Assembly (NCBI GenBank): GCA_039630055.1
Contig: JBCNVN010000028.1
Coordinates: 1 to 18,954, forward strand
Direction: 5' to 3'
Length of the DNA stretch: 18,954 nt
From: Candidatus Caldarchaeales archaeon
GTDB taxonomy: Archaea > Thermoproteota > Nitrososphaeria_A > Caldarchaeales > Wolframiiraptoraceae
Below are positions 3,109-18,916 of the stretch, one piece after another. Every line of letters begins with the position of its first letter. Positions within the stretch are counted from its first letter, which is position 1. The notes below the pieces were generated by a model. That model did no database searches. It had not been told where the DNA came from and was given only the letters and a program-made list of their open reading frames with translations. The position numbers and the translations under genes are program-made.

Positions 3109-3726
3109 CTAGATAGATGAGAACTTCCTCTTTAGCTTTTTAAATATACCTGTAACATAGTGGGTTTGGTCAGTCCTAAACTCTTCATGAGATTCGGGAG
3201 GCTGTATATAATATAAGTCTACCGTCTCCATTCCCTTGATAGTGCTCTCGATAACCTTCCTTCTATGTATTCCTAAATTAACTCTAAGAGGGATGACTTT
3301 TCCCTCTTTATCTATATGGAAGATTTTAAACTTGAGATCTACTAGCTTCCTTGTCTCAGCATATTTTAATGGATCTATTACCATGGCGACAGCCTTTGGG
3401 AACATCATCTGATACCTCTTCTGGGTCTCGATATCTATAGTTGAGAGGAATAGGTCGAAGCCTGGATGTGAATGATACCATCCAACAATACTTAATCCAG
3501 GCCTCTCATGGATAAGCCACTCGTATGTTAAGGCCATGACCTCCTCATCTAGAAGAACGAACGCCGATGATGCTTTCTGGTTTCCAGAGATAGCATCCCA
3601 TATCTCTAGCACATCCTGCCTCTTCTCATATCTTCCAATCAAAAGACCTGCTACCTCTCTCTCCAGATCCATTAATGAATACTTTACAGCTTTTCCTAAA
3701 GCAAGTGGATAGATCCTTACCCTCAA
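3109..3726 (-). CDS. Rpn11-like JAMM/MPN+ metalloprotease (ubiquitin maturase/deubiquitinase)
   Basis: Complete JAMM motif: REVAGLLIG ... VGWYHSHPGFDLFLSTIDIETQ ... AMVIDP. Divergent from the ubiquitin gene; TTG start. Confidence 0.93.
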   Translation of the reverse strand: MRVRIYPLALGKAVKYSLMDLEREVAGLLIGRYEKRQDVLEIWDAISGNQKASSAFVLLDEEVMALTYEWLIHERPGLSIVGWYHSHPGFDLFLSTIDIETQKRYQMMFPKAVAMVIDPLKYAETRKLVDLKFKIFHIDKEGKVIPLRVNLGIHRRKVIESTIKGMETVDLYYIQPPESHEEFRTDQTHYVTGIFKKLKRKFSSI

Positions 3727-4688: not shown

Positions 4689-5873
4689 ATGCAGTACTTA
4701 GAGAGATATGAAAGACAGCTTAGAATAGAAGGTTGGAGGCAAGATAAGCTCTCGAACTCTACTGTAATGATAGTTGGTGTTGGTGCAATCGGATGCGAAG
4801 TCGCTAAAAACCTGACTCTAATGGGTATAGGAGAACTTATACTAGTAGATAATGATGTGGTCGAGGTCTCCAATCTGAGTAGGCAGATGCTGTTTACGGA
4901 TAGAGACATTGGTAGACCGAAAAGCTTGGTCGCCAAAGAAAAACTTGAAGAGATGAATCCCTTTGTAAAGATTAGAGAGTACTATGAGGATGTAAGGAAA
5001 CTAGATAACAACATATTTGAAGAGGCCGATTTAATCTGCTCATGTTTAGACAACTGGCCCGTAAGAAGATGGATTAACTCCATGGCCGTAGAACTAGATA
5101 TCCCATTGATCGATGCTGCCATGGATGGATTATACGCCAATCTGCAAGTTGTAATACCTCGTAAGACCGCGTGTTTAGAATGTCATGGAGAGGATCTTAT
5201 CCCTAAAGATGTACAATTAGCGGAGTGTACTCTTAGGAGGAGGAAACCTGAAGATCTAAAGAAAGATCTAGAAGAACAGAATATAATCGTGGATCTAGAA
5301 TTGGTTAAGAAACTATTCGAGATAGGGATAAAGACATCCTTCGATATAAAATACTCTCAATCTCATATTCTTGATAAGATAGACGAAGAGACTAGGGAGA
5401 AGATTAGAGAGATTCAAGGATTACTTAAACCTAGGATGCCTGCATTACAAAGTGTTGCAGCTACAATATCTGGATTAACCACTACAGAGCTTGTGAAGAT
5501 ACTTCATGGAGAGGCTCTCGGAAAGATCTGGAAGGGGATAATAGTATATGATGGATATTCATCGAGATTTACTAGGGTGAGATTAGAAAGAAAAGAAGAA
5601 TGTTTTGTCTGTGGAGATTATGTTAAGAGCGAAGGAGTAGAGATAAGTGCTAGCCTAGATGAGAAAGTAATAGACCTGAAGAAGAAGATTGCAGAGAAAT
5701 TCAGTCTTCCAGATCCCGAGATACTCTATAAGAAATGGAGGTTAAATGATGACCAAGTGCTTAGAGAGATAGGTATAAGAGATCATGACATATTATATGT
5801 AGAGACTAGTAGGAGATTTACACCATTGACTCTTAAACTGGTCTTAATAGATTCAGAGCCTGATAAGGTCTAG
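4689..5873 (+). CDS. Ubiquitin-activating enzyme E1-like with C-terminal ubiquitin-fold domain
   Basis: RYERQ, GVGAIG, VDND.VE.SNL.RQ, CLDN...R, Zn pairs CLEC and CFVC, putative catalytic Cys in LAECT, and a C-terminal beta-grasp-like segment (V.DLKKKIA...LNDDQVLREIGIRDHDILYV). Confidence 0.93.
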   Translation: MQYLERYERQLRIEGWRQDKLSNSTVMIVGVGAIGCEVAKNLTLMGIGELILVDNDVVEVSNLSRQMLFTDRDIGRPKSLVAKEKLEEMNPFVKIREYYEDVRKLDNNIFEEADLICSCLDNWPVRRWINSMAVELDIPLIDAAMDGLYANLQVVIPRKTACLECHGEDLIPKDVQLAECTLRRRKPEDLKKDLEEQNIIVDLELVKKLFEIGIKTSFDIKYSQSHILDKIDEETREKIREIQGLLKPRMPALQSVAATISGLTTTELVKILHGEALGKIWKGIIVYDGYSSRFTRVRLERKEECFVCGDYVKSEGVEISASLDEKVIDLKKKIAEKFSLPDPEILYKKWRLNDDQVLREIGIRDHDILYVETSRRFTPLTLKLVLIDSEPDKV

Positions 5874-7643: not shown

Positions 7644-8375
7644 TTGATCGTAACACATGAAGAAGTTGCCTCAAGATTTTTTAAGATAGGTTCTGGTGGA
7701 GCGGTAGTTGGAGCAGTACACATTCTAACCTTGCTGCTCGGATGGTATATTGAAACCGATAGTGGAGAGGTCATTACACTCGCAGGATACAATTTCATAG
7801 AATCATTCATTCTATCCACTATAGGGGGGATAGTGGCTGGAGTGAGCTTGTTGATTGCATACCAAGTTAAGAAATTAAATATTATGAAAGCTGTTATCGG
7901 AGGGCTAATAGTAGGTGGAGGATTATTTACCTTCTTCTCCCCAATATACATATACTTTTTCAAGATCCTCGCATTTAACCTCCGAGGTTATCCAGACCTC
8001 GGATTTTTCATAGCTATTATCACCGCTATAATCCAGCTTGGAATAGGGATACTCGTTCTCCTAACCCCACTGAAGGGAGAATTAATAGTTGCAGAAGAAG
8101 TAGCAGCCGTGGAGAGGTATCCTACATCTTCACCTCTTGAGGATATAGATATAGGTCTTCCTACGACTAGAGAAACTCGTAGACCAAGTGTGGCCCGCAT
8201 AGTCCCTGCAGAAGATGTAGAAGAAGGCGTATGCACTATATGTTACTACTCTTTAACTTATGAGAATGCTGTTAGATGTAGTTCATGTGGAGCTCTTTTC
8301 CATAGAGATTGTATAGATGCATGGGTGAGCTTAAACCGTATCTGTCCAAGCTGTAAGGCATCTATACGTGGCTAA
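7644..8375 (+). CDS. Four-transmembrane protein with C-terminal C4HC3 RING domain (putative membrane-anchored E3 ligase)
   Basis: Hydrophobic stretches at approx. aa 15-35, 51-73, 80-106 and 119-141, a polar linker, then CTIC-x11-CSSC-x4-H-x2-C-x3-W-x6-CPSC at aa 197-237. TATA-like TTTATAAAA at 7601 and GAGG at 7631 precede the TTG. Confidence 0.85.
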   Translation: MIVTHEEVASRFFKIGSGGAVVGAVHILTLLLGWYIETDSGEVITLAGYNFIESFILSTIGGIVAGVSLLIAYQVKKLNIMKAVIGGLIVGGGLFTFFSPIYIYFFKILAFNLRGYPDLGFFIAIITAIIQLGIGILVLLTPLKGELIVAEEVAAVERYPTSSPLEDIDIGLPTTRETRRPSVARIVPAEDVEEGVCTICYYSLTYENAVRCSSCGALFHRDCIDAWVSLNRICPSCKASIRG

Positions 8376-15685: not shown

Positions 15686-16111
15686 TTATTTAATGGTAAC
15701 CAGTACAGGTAGGAGCTGTTTCAGTCTTCTAACACTCCTTATCACTCTAATCAATTCTTTAATCTTTGAAGCAACTCCAGATACAGCTATTATCTGTAAG
15801 CAGTCTTCCTCGGTTAAATGTAGATGAAGCGTAGAAGCTATAACTCCTATAAAGCGATGTTGTATATCTGTCAGCTCTTCTTCGAGACCTTTAATATCAT
15901 GCGAGTAATGTATCAGTATAACCCCGGCCACATTTTCTTCCTCTCTAAGTTTCCAAAAGTTTACAGAGATGAATGTCCGAATAGCTTCTTGTAATCCTCG
16001 AGATCTTGAACTGATCCCTATATCCTTCAACACTCTGTCAAAGCCTGCCAGAAGATCTGATGGGAAGGAGACCCCGGTCTTAACAGTCTTAGCCTTCTTC
16101 ATCTTCATCAC
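15686..16111 (-). CDS. nikR: NikR-family nickel-responsive ribbon-helix-helix regulator
   Basis: N-terminal RHH (GVSFP..LL..FD.......SRS....AIR) plus an ACT-like domain with Ni ligands IQH...LHLHL....C. The start could be GTG 16111 or ATG 16108/16102. Confidence 0.85.
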   Translation of the reverse strand: MMKMKKAKTVKTGVSFPSDLLAGFDRVLKDIGISSRSRGLQEAIRTFISVNFWKLREEENVAGVILIHYSHDIKGLEEELTDIQHRFIGVIASTLHLHLTEEDCLQIIAVSGVASKIKELIRVIRSVRRLKQLLPVLVTIK

Positions 16112-16214
16112 TAAAAATTATAAGCTAATGTTTATGATATAGTTTTAGATATCTTGATAGATGTTTGAACATAATTGTCTTCAGATAGACGATTCTGGAA
16201 GACTGTGATATTTT

Positions 16215-16514
16215 CTAGGATTTGCTCTCTCTTCTGTGTAATACTTTCTTTAGGTCTTTTATTGTTATAGCTATCCACCAGATTATTAGAGCTGACAATA
16301 CTAGAACTATGCCTAACAATGTCGATTCTACTGATACCTCTATGAATTCTCCACCTTCAAGCATGTATCCTACGAGGTGGTCTATGAAGACCATCGTAGA
16401 GGCTCCCCAAAGGATTAAACTTAGAAACTTGAGCATGTACTTATCTTCCCCTGCTTTAGTATACCATAAAGCTGTGCTCAGAATCGAAGCGATGACGAGT
16501 ATGACCAGCCACAT
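16215..16514 (-). CDS. Uncharacterised 3-TM membrane protein (paralog A; LWG-x7-DH)
   Basis: 99 aa with three hydrophobic segments and a basic C-tail; aligns by eye with the divergent neighbour. Confidence 0.75.
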   Translation of the reverse strand: MWLVILVIASILSTALWYTKAGEDKYMLKFLSLILWGASTMVFIDHLVGYMLEGGEFIEVSVESTLLGIVLVLSALIIWWIAITIKDLKKVLHRRESKS

Positions 16515-16536
16515 AAGTATTCAATAATCTTTAATA

Positions 16537-16565
16537 GTAACAATAATTTAAAAATTTGTTGTTAC
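16537..16565. promoter_or_regulatory. Putative NikR operator GTAACA-N17-TGTTAC enclosing a bidirectional TATA-like element
   Basis: Arms GTAACAATAA and TTGTTGTTAC are 9/10 complementary. The central TTTAAAAATTT (16547-16557) lies about 30 nt from both start codons. The layout resembles the E. coli NikR operator GTATGA-N16-TCATAC. Confidence 0.6.
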
Positions 16566-16584
16566 CGATAAGGAGGCGTAATAG

Positions 16585-16935
16585 ATGGCGTGTTTCATAA
16601 CTCCGATGATACTAGCGATAATCACTACGTTAATTCAGAGAATTTTAGGCAGGTCTGTGAAAAATTTGAAGCTAGACATGTTGAATACGCTACTGTGGGG
16701 TGGTGTAATCTTACTAGCGGTGGAACATGTCTGGCATGGAGAGGTCGTACCGTGGCCTCCATTCCTTACAGCTATGGATAATCCTACGAATATACCTCTA
16801 ATACTGAATGAGTTGGTCGTTGTAGGTGTACCGATGAGTATATCGATAATCACATTATGGGGAGCCATAGTAACCTTTCCGAAAATGATAAAGATGATGA
16901 GTACGAGCCTCCAGATATATAAGCGGGGTCGATAA
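16585..16935 (+). CDS. Uncharacterised 3-TM membrane protein (paralog B; MAC N-terminus, LWG-x7-EHVWH)
   Basis: 116 aa with three hydrophobic segments; strong SD AGGAGG at 16571-16576. Confidence 0.8.
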   Translation: MACFITPMILAIITTLIQRILGRSVKNLKLDMLNTLLWGGVILLAVEHVWHGEVVPWPPFLTAMDNPTNIPLILNELVVVGVPMSISIITLWGAIVTFPKMIKMMSTSLQIYKRGR

Positions 16936-16974: not shown

Positions 16975-17451
16975 TCACAATCTTTTCAAGAGCTTTAATA
17001 TCTTATGATATATCTCCTCTACTATAATGTCAAGCTTATCCTGCAACTCTTCTGATAGTTCTTCAGAAATAGTGTAGACGTCCGAGACTTTTATGCCGAG
17101 GATGTAGAGTTTCTTCGGAGGATTCAGCTCAAGAATCTCCATAATCTTAAATGCTTCAGGTACCCCAATATAATGAGGACTCCAGATCGTGTAGGAACTT
17201 AAACTATCTATATCGAGCTCAACAATCTCTCCAATCTGGTAACCTGATGCTGTAATACTATCAACTATAACTACCTCTTCTCTTCCTTCAAGATAATCGA
17301 CCAAGTTTAAACCAGTCTTATCAGCTATCTCAACATCATATCCAATATTCAGCAGACTTTCTCTAAGCTTCTCTCCAATCATTAGCCCTATCTTATCATC
17401 TTTAAAGAGTGGGTTTCCAATAAAAATTATTAGAGGTTTTTTCTTCTCCAA
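16975..17451 (-). CDS. Hydrogenase maturation endopeptidase (HycI/HybD family)
   Basis: IGNPLFKDD.IG, VVIVDSI, SPH.IG and LS.EL motifs; begins 1 nt downstream of the large-subunit stop. Confidence 0.9.
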   Translation of the reverse strand: MEKKKPLIIFIGNPLFKDDKIGLMIGEKLRESLLNIGYDVEIADKTGLNLVDYLEGREEVVIVDSITASGYQIGEIVELDIDSLSSYTIWSPHYIGVPEAFKIMEILELNPPKKLYILGIKVSDVYTISEELSEELQDKLDIIVEEIYHKILKLLKRL

Positions 17452-17452
17452 T

Positions 17453-18916
17453 TCAAGATAATATATCTATGGTTTTGAGAAGCCGTCCATTATTATCGTA
17501 TAGGTAGATCTTTATAGGGATGGATCCTGGAAGTGAATGGGTTCCGCATGCATGGCATGGGTCGTATGCTCTGAAAGCCATCTCAACCATGTTTAGTATT
17601 CCTTCATCTACCACTCCACCCTTGATCAAGCTTCTAGCAGCCTTATCTATCGATAATGCTATCCTTGCAGCATTATGTTGTGTAGCTACCAGCAGGTTCG
17701 CTTTCTTCACAATCCCTCTCTCATCTGTCTCATAATGGTGTATTAATACCCCTCTAGGTGCTTCTACTACACCGATCCCTACATCTGGGATAGCGGTAGG
17801 CATATTTCTAACATCTCTACTAGCTATATCTGGATCGTTTGCAAGCTCTCTAAACCTCTCTGCAGCGTATATTATCTCGATTACTCTGGCCCAATGATTT
17901 GCTAGGGTATGATGGATAGGTTTGCCTCCGAGAGTCTCATACATTTCTTCATAAGCCTCTTGTGCTCTTGGAGTAGCCATACCATCTGAAGCATTGAGCC
18001 TCGCTAGTGGAGCTACGCTCATAATCCCACTATCTTCTCCATCTATGAACCCTCTCCATCCAATCTTCTTCAAGTATGGGAACTTTATATATGTCCAAGG
18101 TTCTACGTGCTCAGCTATGTAATCTAGGTATTGATGGATATCGAATTTAGCATGCTCAGATCCTTTGGGAGATACAACTCTAATCTTCCCATCGTAGAAG
18201 TTTACCCTGTTCTTATCATCCACCAAACCCATATAATATGTTCTATGAGTATATGCTTCACTAGTTATCAGATCGACGTACTCTCTATTGCTTAAGACGA
18301 TATCTTTAAAGACTTTATAGGTAAATTCCGCAAAATCTACAGCTTCATCCGCTATCTTCTTCGCATTCTCCACCATTTCCCCGCTTAAAGGTCTAGATAT
18401 TCCTCCAGGCAGACCGAAGACTGGATTTATCACCCTTCCAGCGATCGTCTCGATAAGTTTTCTAAGCTTCTTCCGCATACTGATAACCTTTAACCCAACC
18501 TCTTTTCCAACCTTTCCTATCACGCCGATAATGTTCCTCTCTTCTTTAGGAGCTGTCGGACCAACTATAAAGTCTGGACCTCCAAGCACGTAGAAGTGTA
18601 GTGCGTGGTCTTCTAACATGAAGATGTTATAAACCATCTCTCTAATCTTCTTCGCTGGCTCAGGAGGATCTACCTTGTATAGGTCGTCGAGAGCTTTTGT
18701 AGAGGCCATGTGGTGGGCTGTAGGACAGACTCCGCAGATCCTAGAAGTTATCTGAGGCATGTCTTCAGCATGTCTTCCAACTGCAAACTTCTCAAAACCT
18801 CTCAACTCTGGAACTTGAAGATATGCTCTAGAACAGTTTCCCATCTCATCTAAGACTACAACTATCTTTCCATGTCCTTCAAGTCTTGTAATTGGATCTA
18901 TTACTACTTCTCTCAA
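17453..18916 (-). CDS. mvhA: [NiFe]-hydrogenase large subunit, group 3 (MvhA-like, probably 3c)
   Basis: DPITRLEGHG, PELRGFEKF, L1 SRICGVCP.AH, EAPRG.L.HHY and L2 FRAYDPCHACGTH followed by a 27-aa cleavable tail; SD GAGGGGTGA before the TTG. Confidence 0.88.
   Translation of the reverse strand: MREVVIDPITRLEGHGKIVVVLDEMGNCSRAYLQVPELRGFEKFAVGRHAEDMPQITSRICGVCPTAHHMASTKALDDLYKVDPPEPAKKIREMVYNIFMLEDHALHFYVLGGPDFIVGPTAPKEERNIIGVIGKVGKEVGLKVISMRKKLRKLIETIAGRVINPVFGLPGGISRPLSGEMVENAKKIADEAVDFAEFTYKVFKDIVLSNREYVDLITSEAYTHRTYYMGLVDDKNRVNFYDGKIRVVSPKGSEHAKFDIHQYLDYIAEHVEPWTYIKFPYLKKIGWRGFIDGEDSGIMSVAPLARLNASDGMATPRAQEAYEEMYETLGGKPIHHTLANHWARVIEIIYAAERFRELANDPDIASRDVRNMPTAIPDVGIGVVEAPRGVLIHHYETDERGIVKKANLLVATQHNAARIALSIDKAARSLIKGGVVDEGILNMVEMAFRAYDPCHACGTHSLPGSIPIKIYLYDNNGRLLKTIDILS

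Follow-up and report, generated by a model that had tools for sequence, protein, structure and literature searches.

A divergent pair of three-helix membrane proteins beside nikR as a candidate nickel uptake family of archaea and bacteria

The NiCoT (HoxN/NixA) and HupE/UreJ proteins are candidate secondary nickel importers encoded near hydrogenase, urease or nikR genes. They are single chains of six to eight transmembrane (TM) helices that carry His and Asp in or near these helices and have their own signatures, such as the HX4DH motif. A second route is found in the lar cluster of L. plantarum, where the energy-coupling factor (ECF) nickel importer Lar(MN)QO is encoded together with larB, larC and larE. 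Here we describe two small genes, orfA and orfB, on an 18,954-nt stretch of DNA from a Candidatus Caldarchaeales archaeon (contig JBCNVN010000028.1 of assembly GCA_039630055.1; the whole stretch is called the window below). Like the genes for NiCoT and HupE/UreJ they stand near nikR and hydrogenase genes, and their products likewise have His and Asp in or near TM helices, but each protein has only three such helices.

A close described system is NikM/CbiM with its small membrane partner NikN/CbiN, known from the TtNikM2 structure (PMC3945884); a role in NikR-regulated nickel uptake, which we infer for the pair, would be common to both. The Ni ligands of NikM are reported as the amine of Met1, the amide and imidazole of His2, and His67, and the addition of one residue at the N-terminus abolishes transport (PMC3945884). 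A conserved N-terminus on the outside and a His of the TM2 region, which are metal ligands in NikM/CbiM, may have the same function in orfB, and the small partner, sometimes fused, has its counterpart in the B/A pair. The systems differ in other respects: the pair has no sequence or Pfam similarity to NikM/CbiM and no significant fold match; the helices number 7+2 in NikM/CbiM and 3+3 in the pair (5 in fusions); NikM begins with Met-His and orfB with Met-Ala-Cys-Phe, hence a thiolate ligand is predicted in orfB; and NikM/CbiM is encoded with NikQ/CbiQ and NikO/CbiO, whereas the pair has no adjacent NikQ or NikO, EcfT being encoded elsewhere in the genome. We propose that orfB and orfA are probably the two subunits of an undescribed small nickel uptake protein family that is repressed by NikR. 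Genomic context of three independent kinds, seen in unrelated lineages, supports this reading.

The orfA/orfB pair and its relatives

The genes orfA (16215-16514, minus strand, 99 aa) and orfB (16585-16935, plus strand, 116 aa) lie head to head across a spacer of exactly 70 nt (16515-16584), just as described in an earlier note made from the letters of the window. A Shine-Dalgarno-like GGAGG (16572-16576, plus strand), read from the sequence, stands 8 nt ahead of the orfB ATG. Hydropathy marks three hydrophobic or helical segments in each of the two products, and the AF2 model of orfB (pLDDT 84.9) has helices at residues 5-28, 30-50 and 67-115. Loop 1 and the C-terminal tail of both proteins carry a cluster of Lys and Arg, while loop 2 is acidic and free of either residue; by the positive-inside rule we therefore place three TM helices in each with the N-terminus outside and the C-terminus inside.

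The earlier note had singled out TM2 strings shared by the two proteins, and these are present as LKFLSLILWGASTMVFIDH at residues 28-46 of orfA and LDMLNTLLWGGVILLAVEH at residues 30-48 of orfB, as are the N-terminal MAC and the EHVWH of orfB. Two further motifs of that note stand in part. The G-x5-S-x4-W of the last helix occurs in both window proteins, with only its G and W, and not the Ser, conserved throughout the family; and in the [D/E]H at the TM2 end of orfA, Asp45 is invariant (77 of 77 relatives), while His46 is kept in only 60 and swapped for R, K, W, S, N, A or T in the other 17. What is conserved in orfA is an initial MWL, the string LxxLLWG...VD(H) of TM2, an acidic loop that reads EGGEFxE, and a tail rich in Lys and Arg; its invariant residues are M1, T14, L31, W36, M41, D45, G54, F57, L67, G68 and W79. 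Those of orfB are A2, C3, F4, P7, G39, L44, H48, E53, P58, P59, F60, L61, E76, G81 and W92, and the predicted outer end of its TM2 reads E47-H48-x2-H51-G-E53-VVPWPPFLTAM; across 257 relatives E47 is found in 226, H48 in 234, H51 in 217 and E53 in 237 (each 84-92%).

The Met-Ala-Cys-Phe start of orfB is near-invariant. M[AG]CF opens 107 of the 120 closest relatives; six more have the motif internally, behind over-long called starts, four read MVCF or MTCF, and two are called from a downstream Met. Among 150 distant representatives, 97 have this start and 13 have the motif internally, the remainder being mostly truncated calls or MAC[VLM], MCCF and MSCF variants. Residue 2 is always small (A, G, V, T, S or C), the set that permits excision of the initiator Met.

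The two proteins are distant paralogs, which bears out the ancient kinship suggested from their shared motifs. Pairwise BLASTP finds it weakly (24% over 59 aa, E 0.007); hhalign matches the two family profiles with a probability of 88% (E 3e-6) over 85 columns that begin at the end of TM1 and take in TM2 and TM3, and both families fall into one BLAST single-linkage cluster of 146 proteins from 80 loci. The orfA hidden Markov model (HMM) weakly detects solo orfB genes, and the orfB HMM weakly detects bacterial orfA genes. MAFFT places orfA relatives on orfB relatives, and does so on the orfB part even when aimed at the C-terminal part of the fusions described below. Positions common to both families are L-x3-LWG, an acidic residue and His at the end of TM2, and G-x10-W in TM3.

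The view that the pair belongs to no known transporter family agrees with all our searches. Neither protein has a Pfam or NCBIfam match at E<=1, CbiM (PF01891) included, for which 21 bacterial relatives also gave no match at E<=0.01; nor does orfA or orfB match NicO (PF03824) or HupE_UreJ (PF04955). A sequence-profile search of the PDB returned only a chance row (E 0.036). Foldseek against the PDB gave a best E of 2.3 for the orfB model and 1.4 for the model of a natural B+A fusion, with BioY (4dve_C) at background level for the latter (TM 0.38, E 3.6). A wide VIA-align search with the fusion model reached a best Z of 7.0, below the meaningful level for helical bundles, and its background rows include FolT (Z 6.0), CbiQ (Z 6.1) and the fumarate reductase anchor subunit 3vr8_C (Z 6.0). 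With all scores at background level, these fold searches exclude no family. The fusion model (AF2, pLDDT 85.8, pTM 0.75) was built on an alignment of orfB relatives and 10 fusions only, and a complex prediction for orfA with orfB, which scored 0.16 against a mark of 0.32, is counted neither way. We found no description of the family in the literature, a search that did not cover the supplementary tables of papers on lar gene contexts.

A word-index search with orfB gave 1211 relatives, with no Pfam domain among the 120 of them listed, and an exhaustive profile search yielded 465 representatives at 50% identity. Of 201 sampled genomes from the same phylum, 36 carry orfB. Our main locus set, the best 80 of 290 confirmed loci from a scan of one genome per species, draws on archaea of the Aigarchaeota/Caldarchaeales, Bathyarchaeia, Methanomethylicia, Desulfurococcales, Sulfolobales, Thermoplasmata, Archaeoglobaceae, Altiarchaeales and Micrarchaeota, and on bacteria of the Elusimicrobia, Dehalococcoidales and Spirochaetaceae; metagenome contigs add bacteria from gut, rumen and digesters.

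Throughout these archaea and bacteria the A/B pair is kept as neighbours and is sometimes fused. In 78 of the 80 loci orfA is the immediate neighbour of orfB (45 divergent, 27 B>A, 6 A>B), and the other two are cut by contig ends; within the phylum sample it adjoins orfB in 28 of 29 loci. The bacterial metagenome pairs are ordered B>A and translationally coupled, often with overlapping stop and start codons. A word-index search for longer, fused forms found nothing; the exhaustive profile search did find them, with at least 10 natural B+A fusions among the sequences from its 150 best hits. They consist of an orfB-like three-TM part followed by an orfA-like part that lacks the first helix of orfA. 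Since the tail of B is thereby joined to TM2 of A, with TM1 of A dropped, the fusions agree with the topology given above.

One lineage carries orfB by itself: at loci L046-L049 (genomes G159, G122, G098 and G090, in the same order) it stands alone beside an MFS transporter gene, and a profile search of five genomes of this lineage (91-95% complete) found neither orfA nor NikR. Its solo orfB has Asp-His, as orfA does, and the lineage may represent a homodimeric, ancestral-like form; a homodimeric ancestor of the pair is plausible. One relative contains a second orfB-like copy (G034:C12:187673-187973), which is probably a pseudogene because two TGA codons interrupt its frame.

Nickel genes and NikR-type operators around the pair

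The pair recurs beside nikR, NikR-type operators, hyp genes and lar genes in unrelated lineages. In the window, nikR (15686-16111, minus strand) encodes the nickel-responsive ribbon-helix-helix (RHH) repressor (Pfam NikR_C, 4.8e-19; NCBIfam nickel responsive regulator, 2.6e-31). The gene follows orfA on the same strand after a gap of 103 nt, so the two may be co-transcribed. To survey the context in archaea we clustered all neighbours within 4 kb of the 80 loci and searched for nikR by tblastn as well. By tblastn nikR is adjacent in 20 loci (19 by clustering), from Caldarchaeales, Bathyarchaeia, Thermoplasmata and one Elusimicrobia bacterium, and NikR is the only neighbour that the clustering finds recurring across lineages. 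It stands downstream of orfA in the Caldarchaeales relatives and divergent from a B-A operon in Thermoplasmata. Its mere co-occurrence across the phylum is uninformative, NikR being present in 167 of the 201 genomes. Smaller recurrent sets of neighbours are HycI (6 loci), HypC (5), a DtxR-like repressor (5), HypB (4) and a NosD-like protein (4), and a hydrogenase large subunit is adjacent in 4 of the 80. An Archaeoglobaceae locus has hypA-hypB-hypC about 2.5 kb from the pair, and a Thermoplasmatales locus reads hypB-nikR|B-A...hypF. A locus of an Elusimicrobia metagenome-assembled genome (L117:155-5150) encodes, in order, NikR, an unannotated protein of 323 aa, B, A, a radical-SAM/BATS protein and a HypC-radical-SAM fusion, and is an unusual nickel-linked maturation set.

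For the bacterial context we grouped 80 metagenome loci from gut, rumen and digesters at 85% orfB identity into 44 groups. The commonest downstream genes encode LarB of the AIR-carboxylase family, the PF01969 nickel insertion protein LarC (8e-140) and a LarE-like PP-loop ATPase, and compact B-A-larB-larC operons occur. At least one of larB, larC and larE is found in 17 of the 44 groups (LarB in 14, LarC in 16, LarE in 6), and in 10 of the 23 groups that have 2.5 kb or more of downstream sequence. The products of these genes build the nickel-pincer cofactor (PMC7583248, PMC12611868). In these gut and digester bacteria the B-A pair takes the position of Lar(MN)QO, without adjoining ECF genes. 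An archaeal NikR query found no nikR on the bacterial contigs, and an Rfam scan of 12 bacterial loci found neither a cobalamin nor a NiCo riboswitch. One bacterial orfB homolog has, immediately upstream and on the opposite strand, a Clostridiales-1 RNA (RF01699, 125 bits; L183:5734-5908, minus strand). The survey of homolog neighbourhoods that the earlier note suggested thus shows nikR and hyp genes in archaea and lar genes in bacteria.

Further evidence comes from the spacer itself, which holds a candidate NikR operator, the inverted repeat GTAACAA-N15-TTGTTAC (16537-16565). Its distance to the start codon is 22 nt on the orfA side and 19 nt on the orfB side; its A/T-rich, TATA-like centre is TTTAAAAA. 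Predicted NikR sites are reported as GTGTTAC-N13/14-GTAACAC, with one species showing the reversed form GTAACAC-N13/14-GTGTTAC (PMC545781). The window site, with N15, has two mismatches to the consensus. Its core, GTAACA-N17-TGTTAC, occurs once in the 1.54-Mb genome, in the A/B spacer; with up to two mismatches there are four operator matches in the genome, and only that of the window has an A/T-rich centre in a promoter region.

Across the loci, GTAACAC-N13-15-GTGTTAC with up to two mismatches gives 29 matches within the 21,110 nt that lie upstream of the pair and a single one in the remaining 734,040 nt. The reversed form covers 28 of the 80 loci, 15 of them without adjacent nikR. Many spacers carry the half-site as a direct repeat instead, GGTGTTAC-N14-AGTGTTAC; exact half-sites in any orientation amount to 28 matches upstream and 2 elsewhere on the loci, direct repeats making up 21 of the 28. 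One definition or the other is matched upstream in 46 of the 80 loci. The window site and the promoter-position sites in relatives would place the pair in a predicted NikR regulon. In the delta-proteobacterial NikR regulons (PMC545781) the same half-sites occur with N13-15 spacing and also reversed, ahead of a gene for a candidate nickel transporter and in many cases with nikR next to it; the genes regulated there come from other families, whereas the family here has no name, and many of the archaeal sites are direct repeats.

Three observations on these sites stand apart. The direct repeat GTGTTAC-N14-GTGTTAC, with its 21-bp period, is present in 21 loci (L057, L062, L063, L069, L074, L086, L087 and L092 among them), and half-sites so arranged are unexpected for a symmetric NikR tetramer. 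In eight loci of Desulfurococcales/Sulfolobales type (L066, L071, L108, L111, L114, L119, L121 and L123) the operator position is taken by GTGCAC-N14-16-GTGCA[CT], found nowhere else on the loci; in several of the eight, a gene for a DtxR-like repressor with a FeoA domain lies some 2 kb off, and the repeat may denote a different regulator or metal signal. Finally, the genome encodes a second NikR paralog (133 aa, RHH and NikR_C) on contig C14 (7114-9583; locus L132:6115-8584). Its gene is divergent from one for a P-type (E1-E2) ATPase of 648 aa, possibly a metal pump under nickel control, and we saw no clear NikR box in the spacer between them.

On the other side of orfB the window continues with a gene for a HycI/HybD-type hydrogenase maturation endopeptidase (16975-17451, minus strand; Pfam HycI 3.6e-11, TIGR00072 1.6e-24) and one for a [NiFe]-hydrogenase large subunit (17453-18916, minus strand; PF00374 1.4e-35), just past which the contig ends at 18954. 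The Pfam and NCBIfam matches thus uphold the flanks named in the earlier note: nikR on one side, hydrogenase maturation and large-subunit genes on the other. VhuA is the best NCBIfam score of the large subunit (4.1e-123), and in a relative (L059) the large-subunit gene is followed by those for the small subunit (Oxidored_q6) and MvhD (FlpD, 5.6e-57); the enzyme is therefore of the Mvh/Vhu type, which we take to be cytoplasmic. It is a nickel consumer, and the HycI-type protease is likewise nickel-related context that stands outside the transporter. Matches to the NiFe-hydrogenase large subunit lie on two contigs of this genome.

Proposed nickel site and competing explanations

By analogy with NikM, we place the nickel site on the free N-terminus of orfB. 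Because the residue after Met1 is always small, removal of Met1 is permitted and would leave Ala2 with a free amine, which could join the amide and thiolate of Cys3 in a Ni(II) site that faces outward. His48, His51, Glu47 and Glu53 at the outer end of TM2 in orfB, with Asp45 of orfA, would complete the site, and nickel might pass between the two three-helix bundles. The N-terminal hook of NiSOD is a functional analogue of such a site. At high nickel, NikR would occupy the palindrome at 16537-16565, cover the TATA-like centre common to the divergent promoters and so repress both orfB and orfA-nikR at once. The energy could come from a secondary mechanism or from docking to an ECF module. The pseudo-symmetric His/acid site envisaged in the earlier note has to be given up: the site is asymmetric, since His46 of orfA is replaceable. 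The broader proposal of that note, a two-subunit NikR-linked nickel transporter of a new family, gains from the constancy of the pair, the fusions, the nickel contexts and the lack of a known family, while permease activity, direction of transport and the heterodimer are its inferred parts.

Several points weigh against a nickel uptake role. The query used saw no adjacent nikR in 60 of the 80 loci, and in 26 neither type of operator is present. Sight of the sequences partly guided how the operators were defined, the orientation-free definition being post hoc, with the background counts as its control. Among gut bacteria, the two groups with most loci (19 and 13) lack a nearby nickel gene, their neighbours including a LuxR-type regulator and an ABC type IV protein. 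Other metals are conceivable in view of the DtxR-like repressor near 5 of the 80 loci and of FeoB near one bacterial locus. Every orfB-positive genome of the phylum sample (36 of 36) also has EcfT/CbiQ, which 158 of the 201 genomes have overall, so the pair may depend on such a module. In favour of the role, the genome itself (91.9% complete) gave no match to CbiM, NicO or HupE_UreJ, in a search that did not extend to NikABCDE-like ABC importers. A stronger form of the proposal is less likely than not: a self-sufficient minimal heterodimeric Ni(II) permease of ~215 residues in total, with an N-terminal amine/amidate/Cys-thiolate hook, on which many TACK archaea, Thermoplasmata and gut Clostridia would chiefly rely for their nickel.

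Such self-sufficiency is what the leading alternative denies. The pair or fusion would here be a split minimal nickel S component that docks to a shared EcfA/A'/T module encoded elsewhere, for ATP-driven, group II ECF-like import. Its size and solitary genomic position resemble those of group II S components, this genome has three EcfT/CbiQ matches, and NikM too uses its N-terminus and needs a small, sometimes fused partner in NikN (PMC3945884). The co-occurrence of EcfT with orfB, a prerequisite of such docking but no proof of it, is, however, driven by a few EcfT-poor families and is for that reason not independent evidence; moreover, no CbiQ or ECF ATPase cluster appears among the recurrent neighbours of the 80 scanned and 80 metagenome loci, no Pfam CbiM or other S-component match was obtained, and the fold scores for BioY, FolT and CbiQ are background. 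We regard this explanation as unlikely, if worth keeping in mind.

The chances are slimmer that the pair is nickel-related without being an importer, whether it serves in efflux or homeostasis, senses nickel at the membrane, or stores or chaperones the metal there. Context gives a nickel link and no direction; the proteins are very small for a transporter; and with one NikR paralog divergent from a P-type ATPase gene, NikR paralogs may control more than uptake. Yet the pair lies directly upstream of hyp genes and the cofactor-building larB/C/E, which is the importer position in L. plantarum, and its candidate ligands are on the predicted outer face. The NiCo riboswitch, typical of exporters, was not found in the 12 bacterial loci scanned, and the three common nickel importer families sought in this genome were not found there.

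Transport of another divalent metal (Co, Fe or Mn), or of several without specificity, with nickel contexts confined to some members, strikes us as very improbable. It would accommodate the DtxR/IdeR-like repressor with a FeoA domain that lies within ~2 kb in 5 of the 80 loci, the GTGCAC repeat that replaces the NikR-type box in eight loci, the single FeoB neighbour, and the acceptance of Co by NikM/CbiM-type sites (PMC3945884). The recurrent contexts are nonetheless dominated by the nickel-specific NikR, HypA/B/C/F and LarB/C/E, no cbi or cob genes are among the recurrent neighbours, and the 12 bacterial loci scanned have no cobalamin riboswitch.

The alternative raised in the earlier note, an SdhC/SdhD-like pair that shares a bis-His heme b and anchors the neighbouring hydrogenase in the membrane, can be rejected with near certainty in spite of the two small three-TM subunits, the His near one TM2 end of each, the adjoining hydrogenase genes and the background-level row for 3vr8_C: a conserved axial His in each subunit is lacking (orfA His46 is replaced in 17 of 77), association with a membrane oxidoreductase is not consistent (hydrogenase genes are adjacent only in the closest relatives, with HycI in 6 and the large subunit in 4 of 80 loci, and bacterial members sit in lar operons without hydrogenases), the enzyme with its MvhD is of the presumably cytoplasmic Mvh/Vhu type, and the NikR operator points to metal supply.

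Other window genes and implications for nickel supply

Away from the pair, the window contains between 3109 and 8375 a eukaryote-like ubiquitin set with small open reading frames in between: a JAB/MPN protease (3109-3726), a ThiF/E1-like enzyme (4689-5873) and a RING-finger protein (7644-8375). A ubiquitin set of this kind is on record for archaea of the Caldiarchaeum type.

For many prokaryotes that use nickel, comparative genomics has long failed to point to an importer. One survey reports 62 bacteria that have nickel enzymes but no known transporter, and the Thermoplasmales as having hydrogenases but no assigned nickel transporter (PMC2667541). The orfA/orfB family is a concrete candidate for this role. 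Were the pair a self-sufficient permease, it would place NiSOD-type chemistry on a transporter, an independent reinvention of the NikM trick, in proteins without homology or a fold relative among known transporters, and it would feed both hydrogenases and the nickel-pincer cofactor. If the nickel uptake role is correct, the pair would represent a new transporter family with unusual N-terminal Cys coordination; NikR regulons could be better annotated, and the nickel supply for the LarA-type enzymes of gut anaerobes would be identified.

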